This document shows, one piece after another, positions 5,201 to 14,747 of a DNA stretch of 64,000 nt. How positions within the stretch are numbered: position 1 is the first letter of the stretch; each line of letters starts with the position of its first letter. The notes under the pieces are model-generated. The model saw only the letters and a list, made by a program, of their open reading frames with translations, had not been told where the DNA came from and made no database searches. Where the stretch lies: the NCBI RefSeq assembly GCF_054482595.1, contig NZ_CM137008.1, one strand, 5' to 3'. The translations under genes were made by a program, and so were the position numbers.

Positions 5201-6490
5201 TCCAGGGCAAGATTACGAAAGCCCGCTCCCCGCAAGGACTGACGCCAGATAGTTTCTGTCCATGGCTGCTTTTCGCATCTTACGTCTTAACCCTGCCTTG
5301 AATACCTTATCATTCGTCAAAATATTAATAGCAATGTGCCGTATCCCTGAAAATAATTCTGCTGCATTTCCTCTTCTTATTTTGCAGTCGTCTTCATTCA
5401 TTACCACGTCCAGACGCCAGTGCAGCTTATTCTCCACGTGCCAGTGGTTTCGGATTGCTGTGGCGAACTTCTCTGCGGTTAAATCAGCAGAACTGATATA
5501 ATATCTGACCGTCATTTCTGGCTCTTTCTTTTGTTCTGCTATTATGGACCGAAAGGAGACTGCCACGCATAATTTCTTCAGCCCTTTCCATTCAAACGTG
5601 AAATCAATAAGTTCATCAGGGACATCGCAAACATTATGAAGACGGATCTCTTCTCTGCCGTGACTCTTTTCACTCATTGCGTAACTGTCATGCTCTGGAT
5701 TATTTAATTCTTTCAGTGGAAATTTTTCCTCAAAGGCTTTATTAAGCCGCCCCTGATTTCCTTTTACAGCGAATAAATAATCACCGCCCTGTTTTTGTAT
5801 CTTCTCTGCGATATCTTTCTGGCAACCCATCGCATCAGTTGTGATAATTTTTCCTTTAATATCCAGCATGTTAAGAAGTTCAGGGATAGCTGTAATCTCA
5901 TTAGATTTCTCATCCGTCTTGATCTGTCCGATGACCAGACTGTGCATTGTTGAGAACGCACTAATGACATGAATCGCTCCCCTGCGGCGACTCTTGTCAT
6001 AAGAGTGCCGGAGCGTTTTTCCATCAATTGCAATGACGTCTTTATCATCTGAAGAATGGCAGTCACGCATCCAGTTAATAAAGCACTCGTGAAATTTTGC
6101 AGGACTGATACAGGATACAACTCTGGCAATGGTATCGTGAACAGGAATACCATTTTCAAAATCACCATATTGCTTCAAAAAATCGAGATGTGTTTCCCCA
6201 AAATCCTCTATATCTTCCCAGCCTTCTGCACCAGAAATAACGGCACAAATAGTCAACAGTAGAATATCCGATAATTTATGCTCCACTTTCCAGGCTTGTC
6301 TGTAATCAGGGATAATAGAAATATGTTCCATCAATTTTTTAAGTTCCATTTTGTTCTCCTTAATTATGTAAGGAGTATTTGATCATGTATAAGCAATAAA
6401 AAACAGCTTCAGGTAATGAGGAATATCTCAATTTTTAAACATAAAATGCGAATTATTTAGTACAAAAAGTGAACTTCTGATGATCTTTCC
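5201..6490 (-). mobile_element. ISAs1-family insertion sequence (E. coli H-repeat/ISEc1-like); boundaries approximate
   Basis: Contains an intact 378-aa ISAs1 transposase ORF; the size expected for an H-repeat is about 1.3 kb. Terminal inverted repeats could not be fixed by eye; only a short shared gcggggag core was seen near both ends. Confidence 0.5.
5213..6349 (-). CDS. ISAs1-family transposase (H repeat-associated protein), full length
   Basis: 378-aa ORF recognised as the H-repeat-associated (YhhI/YdcC-type) transposase family; no frameshift or internal stop. Confidence 0.9.
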
Positions 6491-6987
6491 CTGTGATTGC
6501 TTCCCGTTTCCCGATACGGCGGCGCGGGGAGTCATAAAGGTAAGAAATTTCCAGCAGTACAGCGTCCTATTGTTCACGGCGGTAATGCACCAACCAGTAT
6601 TGGCTATCGTAGTGATAACCGTGTAACCTGCCGCCGCATCGCGTATCTAATGTTCATTCTTTTCCATAAACCGTCCGTACACATTGTGATAGTAAAAATA
6701 CAATACATCTTCGCTGATGCGGTTATTCTGCTGCATGTGGGGAGCGCCGAATACTGCTCCCGGTATGGCCAGTAATTACTATTTAGTACGACGTTAGGGG
6801 GAGTCACTTAATCTCACAGATACTTCAAGTAACAGATGAAAATCGCTCCTGAAATGAAAAAAGAAATTTTTTTGAATGTGTTCCTGTCAAATCAAGTGGT
6901 TTTTTCGTCGATATGTAGAGTCATATTGTACACAAAATTGTTACGAAACACACCTTGGTAAAATATTTGAATCGACTGTACAGTGGA

Positions 6988-7290
6988 TTATTTTGTGTGT
7001 ATTACATTCAACACTTGCCCATCTTTTTTCGCTATTAGTATTGTAAAATTTCCTCCTAAAGTCTTCGGTTGTTTTCCCTCGATTTTCCAACAATTATTGT
7101 CATCTGTAATACTATATGGTTTCTGAAATTCTGCTTTTTCTTTCCCGTATACATATTTAATGTAAACATATGATAATTCCAAAGCCATTTCACGACTATT
7201 TACTAAAATTTCCACTGGATTTTCTTTTCCAAATACTTGTTATGATATTGTAAACAATATCATAATAAGTAATATTAGTGAGTTTCTCAT
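6988..7290 (-). pseudogene. Small secreted-protein gene interrupted by an in-frame TAA at codon 17 (orphan immunity-like remnant?)
   Basis: ATG at 7290-7288 opens MRNSLILLIMILFTIS, then TAA at 7242-7240, then the same frame continues QVFGKENPVEILVNSREMALEL... to the stop at 6988. The ORF-track 75-aa ORF (6988..7215) is the in-frame downstream part, starting at a GTG. Confidence 0.4.
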
Positions 7291-7458
7291 GTTCTACACC
7301 TATCGAATCTCAAAAGCTGTGGGTAAAACATTACATTCAGAATATATGATATTCTTACCATCGGAATCCATTTTTCCAAATCGACCTTCTGGTGTACCTG
7401 GATATCCATTAAGAACATGTTTTTCCGAATGGTTAATTTATTCTCTCAGGAAGATGTT

Positions 7459-8028
7459 TTATTTTTCTTCACTACGAAGCAGTTCATGCTGTATTTTTGT
7501 TAAACATTCGTAAGACTCATCTTTGTTCGGGAGATGTGCTGTCATTCGAGCATAAGTTGGCTTCTCATCTTTAAAATATTTAACCATGATTGAATTATCA
7601 AGGACTGCCAACAACTGAGCTGGATCACTGCTCTTTTTTTGATAGATACCCGCTCTTATATAACTTCTAAACCGATCGCCGAGAAACGCCGTTTTTTCTG
7701 CTGTATTTATCAACTCCTGCAACGTTCCTTTGATGGCATGATTTTCATTAAGGCGTAGTGACCCGACACGAATTAAGAGTCTCGCCCCGCTTGATGTGAA
7801 TTTATTATTTTTACATGTACCCAGTTCTGTTTGCCAATAATACTCACCGATGTCCTCATTCTGATACCATCTCCACATGGCTTTATTATTTAAGACAGGA
7901 AACGCGGAAAAAATAGTACCCTTAGCGAAAATAGTAAAACAATCATGATCTTTAGCTTGTATTTCGCAATCAGCTATAACACCAAAATTAACAAATATCA
8001 TCAGCAAAAAGAACAAAACTCTTTTCAT
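7459..8028 (-). CDS. Putative Rhs immunity protein with N-terminal signal peptide (YbfC-like by length and position)
   Basis: 189-aa ORF whose start overlaps the rhs stop by 4 nt; N-terminus [19 protein letters not shown] resembles a Sec signal peptide; low GC like the rhs 3' end. Confidence 0.6.
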
Positions 8029-8549
8029 TTTCTTATTCCTCTCGATGTTCTCTGTTTCATTTTAGCTAAAATTTCACCCAAATCATCTATCCCTGCTGTT
8101 GCTGGCCCATCGGGTTTATTAATGTCTGGGAATAAATAGGGTTCTGCACAAGTATATCCTGGTGGTAATTGAGTTGTTGGCCAATTTGTCTGTGGCAGGT
8201 AATCACTTGCTGTCTTTGTATCCATCCCTGGATACTGGGGATCATCCTGTGGCGTACAAGTCAGATTTGGTTTTACCCACTTCCTGCAATACAGTGTGTA
8301 GTCGTAAGGGCTTAATGCTCTGAAGAATGTTTTGAAAACATTAGGCGCACTACTGGCCTGGTCAATAGGATATGGCAGTCTTAATTGTTTCGCTATGTCT
8401 GGCAATTTACTTGGATCGGGCGTAGGCGGTTTGTTGGGTCTCGCTCCATATCCGCCATTATTTAAGTGTCCATATTTTGATGCCAGTCCCATTGAATCTA
8501 TATACTGAACCGGATTCAACGGATACTGATAAAAATTCCATCCCCCCTT
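8025..8549 (-). other. Rhs C-terminal toxin domain (174 aa after DPIGL), family not recognised
   Basis: Sharp drop in GC below 8550; residues [43 protein letters not shown]...[17 protein letters not shown]...[11 protein letters not shown]...; three Cys and Pro-rich stretches. Confidence 0.6.
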
Positions 8550-11500
8550 CAGTCCAATCGGATCCTGAGTGATATACCTCCCCTGCAGCGGGTCATAATA
8601 GCGGTGGCGGTTGTAATACAGGCCGGACTCCTCATCATACTGCTGACCCGGCAGGCGGATGAGCTGCTGCAGCTGGTGCGGGTTCTCTTCATTCAGCTGG
8701 TTACCCCATTCATCGTATTCTGCGTACCACGCTGTTGTCCCTTCCGTGCTGATAAGCGCCAGCGGCAGGCCGCGATGGTCGCAGTGGTACAGGTGGATTT
8801 TTCGCGCCGGCGTGTACACCGGGTCCATCTGGTTTTGCATCTGCTTCACCGTCAGGCCGCACGATGCCAGCCAGCGGCGGCTTTCCTCACTCACCCGGTC
8901 AGCCAGGATTTCACTTTCCAGCCGGTCGAGCATCTGCACCAGCACCGGCGGGAACACCACACTGCCACCGTCTTCACCGCCGGACTGCTGAAGGGCATCC
9001 GCCAGGCTGCGGCGCTGCGTTCTGGCCAGTTCACCGGTGGCAGTTTCAACTCTGATGAGTGGTGTGAAGCTCCCCGGCTGATAAATCGTCTGGATGCGGG
9101 TTCTGTCGTTCTGTATCGTGGTCAGGCGGTCGCCATCCCAGCCGTACCAGGTCACTTGCGGTTTCCGTGACAGCGACATCCAGCCCGTCAGGTCCCGTTC
9201 ACGTCGCCATACCCGTTTTGCCACCCTGCGGCCCAGCGGGTCGTAAAGATAGCGGCTTTCGACCAGCGGCTCTGCATATTGTGTCCGCGTGTAGTGCACC
9301 AGCCGGTGCTGACTGTCGTAATGGTACCGGTGGGTGCGCTCATCATCCGTGCGGATAACCCCTTCCGGGATGAGGTCGGTTTTCTCTGTCAGTCTGCCGT
9401 GACGGTCATACCGGTAAAGATAGTGCGCGTCACGGGCGATACGGTTATCCGGCCACATGCTGAGGGTGCTGTCCGGGTGCAGCTCCGGGTCGGGCAGGCG
9501 GTTACCTGCCGGGTCCGTGGCATACGGGATGCGGATATCAAGGTTCGCTGCCGTGGTGTGAACGCCGGTCAGCCTGCCGGAGTCGCTGTAGCTGTAACTC
9601 CGGGTATGGCGCGGGCTGCTGATGCGGATGAGTTCGCCGTTGTCGTTCCAGGTGTAATCGCGGTCAGACTGCAGGCTGTTCAGGTGCTGGCTCTGTAACT
9701 GCCCGGCAGGGGTATAAGCGGTGGTGAGTTCATAATGGCCGAAGCTGCGCAGCGTTTCCCGGTGCAGGCGGTCGCGGGTGAAATCCACCAGCGGTGTGTC
9801 GCCGAGCTTCATGCCTGACAGCCAGCCGCTGCCGTAGGTCAGCCATTCCACGGCGGGCAGGCTGTCCGGTATACAGCGGTTCGCCAGCCCCTGCGCGTTG
9901 TAAGCGTGTCTGGTCTCATGCTGCCAGAGCAGTGCTTCCGTCTGCGGGTGATGCACCGTCTGACGCTCACCGGTCAGGCGGCCTTTCTCATCATACCTGT
10001 AATGCACCGCTACCCGGTGCCCTTCGCTGATATGGCTGATGTCTGTCAGCCAGCCACGTTCGTCATACCGCCACCGCTCTGCGGTTTCACCCTTCACGGT
10101 GCGGTGCGTGAGGCGGTCTGCTTCGTCATAGTGCCAGTGGGTGACCAGACCCTCATCCTCGCTGCGGATAAGTTTGCCGGTCAGGTCGTGGTGATAATGC
10201 TGTGTGCGGCCGTCAAAGCCGGTTTCCTGTATCAGCCGGTCGAGTACATCGTAACGGAAGGTGGTGTGGCTGCCGTTTTCACTGGTCAGGCGGATGACCC
10301 GTCCGGCAGCATCGTATTCCATACTGCGCGTCAGACCGCCCTGCGTGGTACGGATGGCCTTTCCCCACGCATCGTACTGTGTCCCGTTTCTGCTGCCGTC
10401 CGGAGCAATGACGGCGGTCAGGTCACCGGCGGCGTTGTATTCATACCGCATTTCATGGCCCTGCATGTCTTTCACGGCAATTAACCGTCCACGGCTGTCG
10501 TATGCGCGGTACTGACTCAGCCCTTCCTCGCGGTGCACCGCCGTCATCTGCCCGAAACGGTCATGGTCATAACGGGTTACATAACCGGAACAGTCGGTGA
10601 AGCTCAGCAACTGGCCGTAACGGCTCCACGTCATGGTTTTCCGGCTGCCGGTGGCATCGTCCGTTGCGCAGGGTAAGTCACTGTGTGGATTATCATAACG
10701 GTAGCGGGTGATATCGCCGTCAGGGGCGGTTTCCTGAATCAGACGGCCGGATTCATCATATTCCCGGCGCATTTCCAGCCCGTCAGGCCCGGTGGCTGAC
10801 GTTAACTGGCTGTGGTGGTTATAGTAAAATGCCGATGCCCTGCCATCCGGTGTGGTGATGCGCGTGATGAGTCCCGTCACCACATCCGGGCTGTATTCTG
10901 TTGTCCGGCCTGCGGCATCCGTCTGTGCCTTAAGCCTGCCCACCGCATCAAACTGACTCTGCGTGACGCTGCCGTCCGCGTGTTCCTTTTTCACCACCCG
11001 CTTCAGCCCGCCTTCGCCCTGCGTGTGCAGCACTTCACGGCGGTCCAGGCTGTCGGTGATGGTGATGCGGTTTTGCTCATAACAGTAGGTGTAGCTTAAG
11101 CCCGCCGGGTTAAGCTGCTCTGTCACCCGCCCGTCGCTGTCGTAACGGTAACGGATTTCCGGTCGGCCCGTGTGACGGTGCGCCACCATCCGGCCCCGGT
11201 ATTTATCATCGTAAGTAAAGCTGCGCACCTGTGTATTGCTGCGGTCATACACCGCCGCCAGTTCGCCGCGTGGCGTCCAGCCATAGCGCACCAGCGGCGC
11301 GGCTGGCAGGTTGTCCGGGTATTCCGGGTCGTGCGTCAGCCACACGGCAGACAGACGGATGCCGTTGTCCCGGCCATATTCGGTGTAACCCGGCAGGGTA
11401 TCAGGAAAAGCGGACGGTTCCGTCCCGCCGGAAGAGGCCTGCTGCCGGGCTTCTTCTGCCCGCTGCGCCTGCGTGGTCAGTACCAGCCGGAAGTGACGCC

Positions 11501-12224
11501 CGGCACCATCCGTCACGCCGGTGATTTCGCCGCTGAATTCACCGGCGGCTTCGCGGTGGAACGTCTGTGTGCGCCCGAAGCGGTCCACCAGCCCGGTCAG
11601 TACCCGGTACGGCGGCAGCGGCGCAGGCAGCACCTCATCCGCTTCCGGCACCCGCTCACACCAGCCGAGCAGCCACCACGGCCCCTGCGGACTGTTTGTC
11701 GCCAGATAACGATGCGGACTTAAGCGGAGTTCTTCCGGCAGCGCCTGCCAGAGTGCGGCCAGCCGGTGACCTTCATCCAGTTTCGCCACGCCGCCGCGCA
11801 CCAGCCACAGTGACTCGCTGCGGCTGTAACCGTCCTCACCGGGAAACAGGTGCTCAAAATACAGGCTTCTGCCGCCGTTATCACTGAGTATCAGTGTGTT
11901 ATCGCGCAGCTGTAAGCGGATATCCGCAGGCATTTTCCAGCCGGGGCCGAGGCTCCCCACCGGCGCGGGCGTTTTTGTCCGGTAACTGCTGTAGGTGCGG
12001 GAGAGAATGAACGGCAGCGGGGCGGGCAGGGCGATGTCGGTTTCACCGGGAAGGACCTTTGCACCGAGCAGCGGATTGACCGGATGGCCGGACGTCACCC
12101 CGCCGGGGCACACCGAACAGGCCACGCCGGTGGGGGCACCAATACGTACCCCGGCTGAACCCTGGACAATGCTACCGCCATACTGCGTCATGTCGCCCTG
12201 ACGCGCCGCCGGTTTTCCGCTCAT
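8025..12224 (-). CDS. rhsC: Rhs family protein (RhsC by position next to ybfA-kdp) with variable C-terminal toxin domain
   Basis: 1399-aa ORF; N-terminal region with CSVCPGG motif, long YD-repeat core, and DPIGL core-end motif encoded at 8550-8564, followed by a 174-aa C-terminal domain. Confidence 0.9.
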
Positions 12225-12417
12225 CTGCTCATCCTTGTATTATCGGGTTATTTGTCCGCTGACAGGCAAAACCCTACAGATTTATAAGAAAGCCTTAAGT
12301 GAGATATCCGTCAGATAGAAACAATTAGGAAAATATTTATATATATTTCATGAATATATGTTTCGATTGGTATAACGGTGTCTAAATATTCCTCTGAACA
12401 TCTTCCTGATACAAAAA

Positions 12418-12447
12418 ACCGCCAGCGTTTCCGCTGGCGGTTTTCAA
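12418..12447 (-). terminator. Rho-independent terminator downstream of ybfA
   Basis: Minus strand reads ccgccagcg gaaa cgctggcgg followed by a T6 run. Confidence 0.7.
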
Positions 12448-12466
12448 TGTATTCAGAACTCAGCAA

Positions 12467-12673
12467 TCAATAAAAATCACCGGTTGCCTTTTCGGCCTGA
12501 TCCATCCACACCGGTTTATCGCTGGTTTTCGACCAGACGCGATGCAGGTAGCTGTAAAAGCGGGCGCGGTCTTTCCAGAAAAGCATGAAAGGCAGCGCCA
12601 GAACGCCCGCTGCAACCGCATAAGTACGGCGTAAAAAGATAAGCCATGCTGGATATTCTCTGTAGAGTTCCAT
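12467..12673 (-). CDS. ybfA: Small membrane protein YbfA (DUF2517)
   Basis: 68-aa ORF recognised as YbfA; divergent from the kdp operon. Confidence 0.85.
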
Positions 12674-12881
12674 ACTTTTCTCCCCCTTTTGTATCTACCC
12701 GGTGAATGGCACCGGAAAATGAATTTGTTTATCTGATGAAAATAGTACCGCCTTTTGTGTAATTTTACTACTCATCCGACCACTTATTTTTGCTTATTGA
12801 TGGTTTATTTACATTCACCCTGTAATTAAGTTACACAAAAGTTAAATTAATACTAAACATTAGTTAAATCATGGCTTTTGC

Positions 12882-12908
12882 CATTTTTATACTTTTTTTA
12901 CACCCCGT
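12882..12908 (+). promoter_or_regulatory. KdpE operator / kdpFABC promoter region
   Basis: catttttatactttttttacaccccg, the T-rich KdpE-binding sequence, about 80 nt upstream of kdpF. Confidence 0.6.
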
Positions 12909-12984
12909 CCGCAGATTTTTGCGAAATCTTTGCAGCCAGAATTCTACCCTTCCGGTATCACTTTTAGGCCACTGGAGGTGCACT

Positions 12985-13074
12985 GTGAGTGCAGGCGTGA
13001 TAACCGGCGTATTGCTGGTGTTTTTATTACTGGGTTATCTGGTTTATGCCCTGATCAATGCGGAGGCGTTCTGA
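12985..13074 (+). CDS. kdpF: K+-transporting ATPase subunit F
   Basis: GTG start after ggagg; encodes (M)[28 protein letters not shown] (29 aa); its stop overlaps the kdpA ATG. Confidence 0.85.
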
Positions 13075-14747
13075 TGGCTGCGCAAGGGTTCTTACTGATC
13101 GCCACGTTTTTACTGGTGTTAATGGTGCTGGCGCGTCCTTTAGGCAGCGGGCTGGCGCGGCTGATTAATGACATTCCTCTTCCAGGTACAGCGGGCGTTG
13201 AACGCGTACTCTTTAGCGCGCTTGGCGTCTCTGACCGTGAGATGAACTGGAAGCAGTATCTCTCAGCCATTCTTGGCCTGAATATGCTGGGGCTGGCGGT
13301 GCTGTTTTTTATGTTGCTCGGTCAGAACTATCTGCCGCTTAATCCGCAACAACTGCCGGGGCTGTCGTGGGATCTGGCGCTGAATACCGCCGTCAGCTTT
13401 GTCACCAATACCAACTGGCAAGCTTACAGCGGTGAAACCACGTTGAGCTATTTCAGCCAGATGGCGGGTTTAACGGTGCAAAACTTTCTTTCTGCCGCCA
13501 GCGGGATTGCGGTGATTTTTGCCCTCATCCGCGCGTTTACCCGCCAGAGCATGAGCACACTCGGGAATGCCTGGGTCGATCTGCTACGCATCACGTTATG
13601 GGTGCTAGTCCCTGTGGCGTTGTTGATCGCACTGTTTTTTATTCAACAAGGTGCGCTGCAAAACTTTCTGCCCTATCAGGCAGTGAATACCGTTGAAGGA
13701 GCGCAACAGCTGTTACCCATGGGGCCAGTAGCTTCTCAGGAAGCGATCAAGATGCTCGGTACTAACGGCGGTGGCTTCTTTAATGCCAACTCGTCGCATC
13801 CGTTTGAAAACCCAACCGCACTGACCAACTTCGTGCAGATGCTGGCGATCTTCTTGATCCCAACAGCGCTGTGCTTTGCCTTTGGTGAAGTGACGGGCGA
13901 TCGCCGCCAGGGGCGCATGTTGCTGTGGGCGATGTCAGTGATTTTTGTCATCTGCGTAGGCGTGGTGATGTGGGCAGAAGTTCAGGGTAATCCTCATCTG
14001 CTGGCGCTCGGCGCAGACAGCAGCATCAATATGGAAGGTAAAGAGAGCCGTTTCGGCGTGCTGGTCAGTAGCCTGTTTGCGGTCGTGACTACGGCGGCGT
14101 CCTGTGGCGCGGTGATTGCGATGCATGATTCGTTTACCGCTCTCGGTGGCATGGTGCCGATGTGGCTGATGCAAATTGGTGAAGTGGTATTCGGCGGTGT
14201 CGGTTCTGGTCTTTACGGCATGATGCTGTTTGTCCTGCTGGCGGTGTTTATTGCCGGGCTGATGATTGGTCGTACACCGGAATATCTGGGTAAAAAAATC
14301 GACGTACGTGAGATGAAACTGACTGCACTGGCGATTCTGGTCACCCCGACGCTGGTGCTGATGGGCGCGGCGCTGGCAATGATGACCGACGCCGGACGTA
14401 GCGCCATGCTCAACCCTGGCCCGCATGGTTTTAGCGAAGTGCTGTACGCCGTGTCATCCGCCGCTAACAACAACGGCAGCGCCTTTGCCGGATTAAGCGC
14501 CAACTCTCCGTTCTGGAACTGTTTACTGGCGTTCTGCATGTTTGTCGGTCGCTTCGGGGTGATTATCCCGGTGATGGCAATTGCCGGTTCGCTGGTGAGT
14601 AAAAAGAGCCAACCCGCCAGCTCCGGCACGCTGCCAACGCACGGCCCGCTGTTTGTTGGCCTGTTAATCGGCACCGTGTTGCTGGTTGGCGCACTGACCT
14701 TTATCCCTGCCCTGGCGCTTGGTCCGGTGGCGGAATATCTCTCCTGA
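13074..14747 (+). CDS. kdpA: K+-transporting ATPase subunit A
   Basis: 557-aa protein starting [12 protein letters not shown]; the ORF-track 605-aa version is an upstream in-frame extension. Confidence 0.93.

Follow-up and report, generated by a model that had tools for sequence, protein, structure and literature searches.

The DNA analysed here, referred to as the window in the following (64,000 nucleotides of contig NZ_CM137008.1 from the NCBI RefSeq assembly GCF_054482595.1), contains the rhsC locus of Escherichia coli on its minus strand. The explanation that accounts best for the organization of this locus, and to which we assign a probability of roughly two in three, is that of a polymorphic-toxin module in which an exported and disulfide-bonded YbfC protein neutralises a Rhs-borne toxin in the periplasm. 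It builds on the arrangement of the genes, the orthology of YbfC with its K-12 counterpart, the conservation of the YbfC leader, the covariation of the cysteines assigned to disulfides, and the linkage between the toxin and YbfC, all of which were established by computation.

According to this model, the Rhs protein would carry a polymorphic C-terminal toxin of about 150 amino acids, of a type found in K-12 solely as the orphan fragment ybfO, and ybfC would be translationally coupled to rhs. The YbfC protein would be exported via the Sec pathway, cut by signal peptidase I (SPase I) after Ala19, and adopt a soluble, β-rich fold with two disulfides in the periplasm, where it would bind and neutralise toxin molecules stemming from sister cells. 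Their delivery would presumably proceed via a type VI secretion system (T6SS). The toxin, a soluble and proline-rich segment with three conserved cysteines, may depend on the target cell for its oxidative folding. As it is in the periplasm that protection would be required, this compartment or the cell envelope is the most likely site of toxin action, as judged from the location of the immunity protein.

Architecture of the rhsC locus and comparison with E. coli K-12

The rhs open reading frame (8025..12224, minus strand) and its translation specify a protein of 1399 amino acids in which the core of the rhsC locus is joined to a C-terminal toxin of the ybfO type. Residues 1-600 comprise DUF6531 and RHS repeats, and the C-terminal end of the Rhs core is matched by RHS_core and Rhs_assc_core, both of which end at a DPIGL motif (residues 1221-1225; 8550..8564, minus strand) that lies inside the RHS core match and closes the core. 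The toxin region consists of the 174 amino acids that follow DPIGL (8028..8549, minus strand). Hallmarks of Rhs polymorphic toxins are present in this arrangement: RHS repeats, a core ending in PxxxxDPxGL, a variable tail, and a small coupled gene. In the annotation, rhs is listed as 'RHS element core protein' and is placed between ybfA and ybfC.

The small coupled gene is ybfC (7459..8028, minus strand), the candidate immunity gene, whose open reading frame encodes a protein of 189 amino acids, leader included. It carries the RefSeq name 'protein YbfC' and is identical to YbfC of K-12 in 183 of its 189 residues (97%). The TGA stop codon of rhs (8027..8025) and the ATG start codon of ybfC (8028..8026) share the four nucleotides ATGA (8025..8028, minus strand), an overlap that would couple the translation of the two genes, and a Shine-Dalgarno-like GAGAGG (8038..8043, minus strand) is situated nine nucleotides 5' of the ybfC ATG, within the end of rhs. 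A preliminary description of this DNA had already reported an open reading frame of 189 amino acids overlapping the rhs stop codon by four nucleotides; this is borne out by our analysis, to which we add that both genes are located on the minus strand, a point left unstated at the time.

The gene order kdp-ybfA-rhs-ybfC-...-ybgA-phr is common to the window and to K-12. A 2.5-kb stretch around ybfC is 100% identical in nine complete E. coli genomes, among them that of strain XH990, in which the genes follow each other as kdpFABC – ybfA – 'RHS element core protein' – ybfC – 'NTF2 fold immunity protein' – ISEc1 transposase – ybgA – phrB. The K-12 pair ybfO-ybfC (b0703/b0704) has the same sequences as the window and resides at the same locus between ybfA and ybgA, but its context is a different one. 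The order in K-12 is rhsC – ybfB – ybfO – ybfC, and ybfO is an rhs fragment that is annotated as a pseudogene and forms a promoterless orphan downstream of rhsC-ybfB, whereas the ybfO-type tail of the window is part of a full-length core. The preliminary description had stated that ybfC of K-12 follows an orphan rhs fragment rather than the main rhsC; this is correct, since ybfC stands behind ybfO and it is ybfB that comes after the main rhsC.

An alignment with K-12 ybfO/ybfC, proposed in the same description as a means of telling an orphan from a main arrangement, reveals a tail of the ybfO type fused to an rhsC core. In our blastn comparisons, window positions 13500..8487 are colinear with a K-12 segment that starts upstream of rhsC and reaches to where the rhsC core ends, and positions 9530..7420 correspond, with 97.7% DNA identity, to K-12 ybfO and ybfC; the toxin region leaves K-12 rhsC at about position 8487 and is colinear with ybfO. 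Taken together, these two stretches identify the rhs gene of the window as the rhsC core combined with a tail that is present in K-12 only as the orphan ybfO. Neither the K-12-type rhsC tail nor ybfB is present in the window. BL21(DE3) possesses an array in the order rhsC – ybfB – orphan – ybfC – NTF2 immunity gene – further remnants.

The arrangement found in the window looks like the product of recombination between the main and the orphan core sequences, with the reverse event, C-terminal displacement, being a possible alternative. In Salmonella, an orphan rhs tail/immunity pair is reportedly expressed once recombination has fused it to the main rhs core, and the window arrangement, when viewed against those of K-12 and BL21, looks like an event of the same kind. 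The Salmonella case concerns another toxin family and was selected in the laboratory, whereas the window arrangement represents a natural polymorphism.

Several remnants are located downstream of ybfC. Directly after it, positions 7300..7437 (minus strand) hold an open frame of 45 codons (INHSEKHVLNGYPGTPEGRFGKMDSDGKNIIYSECNVLPTAFEIR) with no start codon; its weak similarity to Pfam DUF4329 (E=0.12) is confined to the final part of the model (positions 85-111 of 116), and the frame looks like what is left of the C-terminus of a second orphan toxin that has been deleted. The annotated 'NTF2 fold immunity protein' of 75 amino acids covers only the 3' portion of a longer frame (6988..7290, minus strand) that begins with the signal-peptide-like MRNSLILLIMILFTIS and contains an in-frame stop codon at 7240-7242. 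When rejoined, this protein matches Imm-NTF2-2 (E=2.6e-20), and the frame may represent a second exported immunity gene that is now truncated. The NTF2 region occurs in 844 genomes, including those of BL21(DE3), ATCC 8739 and O157:H7. A short, out-of-frame remnant of an Rhs core (6471..6641, minus strand; …HGYHYDSQYWLVHY…YLYDSPRRRIGK…) adjoins the ISEc1 transposase gene (ISAs1-family, 'H-repeat'; 5213..6349). Window positions 6497..7420 have no K-12 counterpart in our blastn comparison.

Export and fold of YbfC

The N-terminus of YbfC has the n/h/c anatomy of a signal peptide for Sec export and SPase I cleavage, which we predict to comprise residues 1-19 (7972..8028, minus strand). Its n-region (MKR) bears a charge of +2, its hydrophobic core of 16 residues (4-19) has a mean Kyte-Doolittle value of 2.75, and its cleavage site, with Gly at -4, Val at -3 and Ala at -1, is positioned in front of Asp20. 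The -3/-1 rule is kept at the same site in all 17 close homologues that we compared (60-96% identity; Escherichia, Salmonella, Citrobacter, Kluyvera and Pseudocitrobacter). We widened the family to about 20% identity by a profile search among 1.84 billion representative proteins, and 46 of its 54 aligned full-length members passed a strict leader test. Among the other eight, several look like proteins whose leaders fall narrowly below the thresholds, and the N-termini of at least P0106 and P0140 appear to be mis-called.

Collectively, these data argue for the export of YbfC via Sec and for its cleavage by SPase I after Ala19. The preliminary description had proposed a Sec signal peptide with no canonical lipobox, and both parts of this proposal hold: the leader is a conserved trait of the family, and the four residues ending at Cys21 (IADC) form no lipobox, with Asp occupying position -1. 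One YbfC-family member in AFDB bears the name 'Periplasmic protein', and a study of STEC strains calls ybfC a 'putative secreted protein' (PMC6033998); both names presumably stem from automatic annotation.

Our AlphaFold2 model of YbfC (pLDDT 88.4, pTM 0.82) is confident from about residue 21 onward, with pLDDT values of about 52 over residues 1-20 as opposed to >90 across most of the mature domain. The predicted mature protein (7462..7971, minus strand) comprises 170 amino acids (~19.7 kDa), is modelled mostly as β-strand, and would contain two disulfides, C21-C72 and C30-C175. YbfC has no match in Pfam, NCBIfam or PDB sequences, and comparisons with known immunity families (Pfam Imm/SUKH etc.) and with solved structures yielded neither a sequence nor a fold match.

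The assignment of the two disulfides derives from the distribution of the cysteines within the family. C30 is accompanied by C175 in 53 of the 54 members. C21 and C72 occur jointly in 37 members, are jointly missing from the remaining 17, and are never found singly; according to a rough neighbour-joining tree, their joint gains or losses took place in at least three independent events. The paired behaviour of C21 and C72, together with the C30/C175 pair, implies two disulfides and consequently folding of YbfC in an oxidising compartment. The cysteine pattern as a whole points to a soluble periplasmic YbfC protein.

This pattern also bears on the alternative that YbfC faces the periplasm while being tethered to the membrane, either as a lipoprotein acylated on Cys21 or through an uncleaved signal anchor. 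Such a topology is suggested by the position of Cys21, two residues past the predicted cleavage site, and by a loose lipobox fit in six of the 17 close homologues (ISAC, IGAC, MAAC, LASC, IAAC and MASC). The other eleven have no lipobox, however, and all 17 have a well-formed SPase I site one position upstream. In the window protein itself, IADC departs from the lipobox consensus ([LVI][ASTVI][GAS]C), as Asp at -1 breaks it. Furthermore, Cys21 is lost only jointly with Cys72, and the 17 family members that are devoid of C21 retain their leader; the covariation of the two residues marks Cys21 as a disulfide partner and not as a lipidation site. We hold a tethered YbfC to be quite improbable and prefer a soluble protein that is released into the periplasm.

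Some of the distant YbfC-family matches deviate from the single-domain architecture. P0134 (512 aa) and P0139 (491 aa) contain four to six matched stretches each, and the YbfC-family domain of P0125 (358 aa) is located C-terminally; these three proteins may represent tandem or fused immunity domains. Another distant homologue, P0118 (L009 6001..6579), has no adjacent Rhs gene and is found within a run of small same-strand ORFs, including SUFU-like, HEPN_AbiU2 and acetyltransferase genes, that resembles a multi-immunity island.

The toxin tail and its linkage with YbfC

Four loci outside the window contain another five toxin/YbfC modules, and the four-nucleotide overlap recurs in all of them; some of the toxin-tail homologues show no more than 34-45% identity. 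One locus (L003) is a metagenomic orphan array in which the module adjoins VgrG, DUF2169 and PAAR-like genes; at another (L007), a toxin homologue is followed by a YbfC homologue. The module in an Acidovorax genome (L010) was recognised with an hhalign probability of 99.5%, and the fourth locus (L011) contains two consecutive orphan modules. The adjacency of toxin and YbfC is kept while both partners fall to about 30-45% identity with the window pair, and the toxin tail was found in our homology searches solely on Rhs proteins or on fragments. These findings support the view that the rhs tail and YbfC are a cognate toxin–immunity pair, and we infer the immunity function of YbfC from them. The toxin-immunity coupling that the preliminary description had read from the ATGA overlap in the window is thus seen again at all four of these loci, twice in L011.

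The 174-residue toxin region is hydrophilic (GRAVY -0.78), has a pI of 9.0, contains 24 Pro (14%) and 3 Cys, and is devoid of any TM-like segment. Alignments of its family (A4 and A5), which reach homologues at about 27% identity, delineate a conserved core (8124..8312, minus strand) of the form SPYDYTxYCxKW…C…PGxD…DYxP…PxGYxC…FP, in which three cysteines but no histidines are conserved. Pfam returned no match for the window toxin or for any of 23 homologues, and the toxin and its family profile were unmatched beyond the Rhs core in NCBIfam and PDB sequences. An envelope-targeting catalytic domain (amidase, muramidase, lipase or pore-former) was consequently not recognisable in the toxin in searches of Pfam, NCBIfam and PDB, and an AlphaFold2 model calculated on an alignment of 14 sequences was unusable (pLDDT 41.8). 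With neither a recognisable catalytic domain nor a usable model, the toxin has no direct tie to an envelope substrate.

We considered a number of specific activities for the tail. The absence of a conserved His from the toxin family argues against a Cys-His amidase, and the lack of a hydrophobic segment against a pore-former. We also rejected a colicin M-like phosphatase with a DxYDx5HR motif, since Ser takes the place of the first Asp and there is no conservation at the last two positions.

The C-termini of the toxin family end almost invariably in R-x-x-K/R or R-K (window positions 8025..8034 and the homologous modules), and YbfC starts with M-K-R. As the ATGA overlap forces a final A in the last toxin codon, part of this C-terminal conservation may be imposed by the overlap and not by what the toxin does.

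Instead of acting in the periplasm, the toxin might act in the cytoplasm, with YbfC either intercepting it on its way through the periplasm or not being an immunity protein at all, but an accessory or unrelated secreted protein. Searches of Pfam and PDB assign no activity to the toxin, the periplasm is the first stop of T6SS cargo, and the activities that have been assigned to Rhs tails are largely those of nucleases and other cytoplasm-acting enzymes (PMC6730261). A YbfC protein with no role in immunity is difficult to reconcile, however, with its strict adjacency to the toxin over the range of divergence described above, which is maintained even in orphan modules where only the immunity would be useful, and there is no other ORF between rhs and the downstream remnants. 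The three conserved cysteines of the toxin speak likewise against a cytoplasmic site of action. Moreover, exported immunity goes along with a periplasmic target in the known Tae/Tai, Tge/Tgi, Tle/Tli, colicin M/Cmi and pesticin/Pim pairs. We consider a cytoplasm-acting toxin, or a YbfC unrelated to immunity, to be unlikely and favour a toxin that YbfC counteracts at its periplasmic or envelope site of action.

Such a module has partial precedents. [quoted passage not shown] It also provides a precedent for the autoproteolysis of Rhs toxins (PMC10684867), by which the toxin of the window may be released near DPIGL. The two toxins differ in that Tse5-CT is an integral-membrane, pore-forming fragment, whereas the window toxin is hydrophilic and has no TM-like segment; sequence matches between the two are confined to the Rhs core.

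Like YbfC, the immunity proteins of the Tae/Tai, Tge/Tgi, Tle/Tli and Ssp2/Ssp4 systems carry an export signal. The periplasm-acting Serratia effectors Ssp2 and Ssp4 require DsbA of the target cell (PMC5792426), a need that matches the conserved cysteines of the toxin studied here. The Tae, Tge, Tle and Ssp effectors are mostly separate cargo with amidase, muramidase or lipase folds, whereas the window toxin is fused to Rhs and has no match among Pfam or PDB families.

Closest to home, the RhsC tail and YbfB of K-12 show the same organization, in that a small gene closely coupled to the Rhs tail encodes a non-cytoplasmic product. YbfB (108 aa) has three hydrophobic segments and is probably a polytopic inner-membrane protein, in contrast to YbfC with its leader-bearing, soluble and β-rich domain. 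The three long hydrophobic segments encoded by K-12 ybfB (L002 6777..7103) suggest that this same locus harbours an immunity protein embedded in the membrane and a toxin targeting the membrane.

The preliminary description had argued that immunity proteins of Rhs toxins are mostly cytoplasmic, so that an exported one would imply a toxin acting in the periplasm or on the envelope. The leader on which this argument was built is conserved family-wide and supports the periplasmic reading. The implied rarity of a non-cytoplasmic immunity protein next to Rhs does not hold, given the probably polytopic YbfB, the case of Tse5, and the routine practice in the field of calling an effector periplasmic when its immunity gene specifies a signal peptide (PMC10469887).

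Distribution, delivery and biological meaning of the module

Among 5426 complete E. coli genomes, 3517 carry the tail and ybfC as an intact, single-copy module with 95-100% identity. The module is present as an orphan in K-12 and BL21(DE3), and it is also found in O157:H7. The ybfB–ybfO junction of K-12 occurs in 2536 genomes, which leaves about 980 genomes with the module in other arrangements, including its fusion to the main gene; this figure is an estimate, since the core-to-tail junction is identical in the main and orphan arrangements and thus provides no exact count of the former. An in silico study of EHEC treats the pair as RhsC/RhsCI (z0853) and makes no mention of a leader in those of its parts that deal with RhsCI and with signal peptides (PMC7216683). 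The rhsC-specific primer given there is an exact match to window positions 8423-8442, and the product obtained with it from EDL933 (PMC7216683) indicates that this strain carries the same tail. Our survey of the literature on ybfC/ybfO and rhsC found no functional study characterising ybfC or ybfO.

Delivery of the Rhs toxin by a T6SS is likely in principle. The N-terminus of the Rhs protein contains PAARQGD, and its residues 3-20 align with the last 18 positions of PAAR_motif in a weak and partial match (E=0.19). Strain XH990, whose locus is identical to that of the window over the 2.5 kb compared, possesses a T6SS cluster that is situated at aspV and includes Hcp, VgrG and one more Rhs gene (L014; NZ_CP019359.1 3859000-3889000). 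In the annotation of this cluster, tssH has an internal stop codon and the VasL-domain gene (vasL) a frameshift, lesions that may reflect either genuine decay or mistakes in the assembly. Since the toxin of K-12 is an orphan pseudogene, some hosts may make no use of the module.

These observations bear on the question whether the module of this strain is an inactive relic, with intact ORFs that are never deployed and that provide, at most, stand-by immunity against other E. coli cells. In K-12, ybfC has no usable toxin at its side, an orphan arrangement shared by about 2536 genomes; the T6SS genes of XH990 carry the lesions just described; and a promoter/terminator scan around ybfC found signals at chance level only. 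Yet the toxin of the window is in frame with a complete Rhs protein of 1399 amino acids, the module has stayed intact and nearly invariant in about two thirds of the genomes surveyed, and the expression of rhsC and ybfC is listed as higher in HUS-group than in non-HUS-group STEC strains (PMC6033998). We give little credence to the idea of a relic, which in any case concerns deployment and is compatible with the export of YbfC and its role in immunity. An exported immunity protein that counteracts a toxin in the periplasm is the reading that we retain.

With respect to experiments, K-12 and BL21(DE3) both carry ybfC and are thus probably immune, so that a ΔybfC host will be needed for toxicity tests. 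The conceptual gain would be modest, since deducing a periplasmic effector from the export of its immunity protein is already a standard principle.

E. coli Rhs elements were discovered decades ago, yet an activity has been assigned to only a minority of their toxin tails. If the toxin described here is indeed periplasmic, an envelope-targeting activity would join a repertoire whose assigned activities are largely those of nucleases and other cytoplasm-acting enzymes, and the y-gene ybfC would gain a function. More far-reaching, and put forward here tentatively, is the possibility that the ybfO-type tail founds an undescribed family of soluble, proline-rich and cysteine-dependent (possibly dependent on DsbA of the target cell) periplasmic toxins with a new fold and a new envelope target, and that YbfC represents a new β-sandwich class of periplasmic immunity proteins. 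In this event, the pair would be a feature of about two thirds of E. coli genomes and would reach as far as Acidovorax and Delftia.
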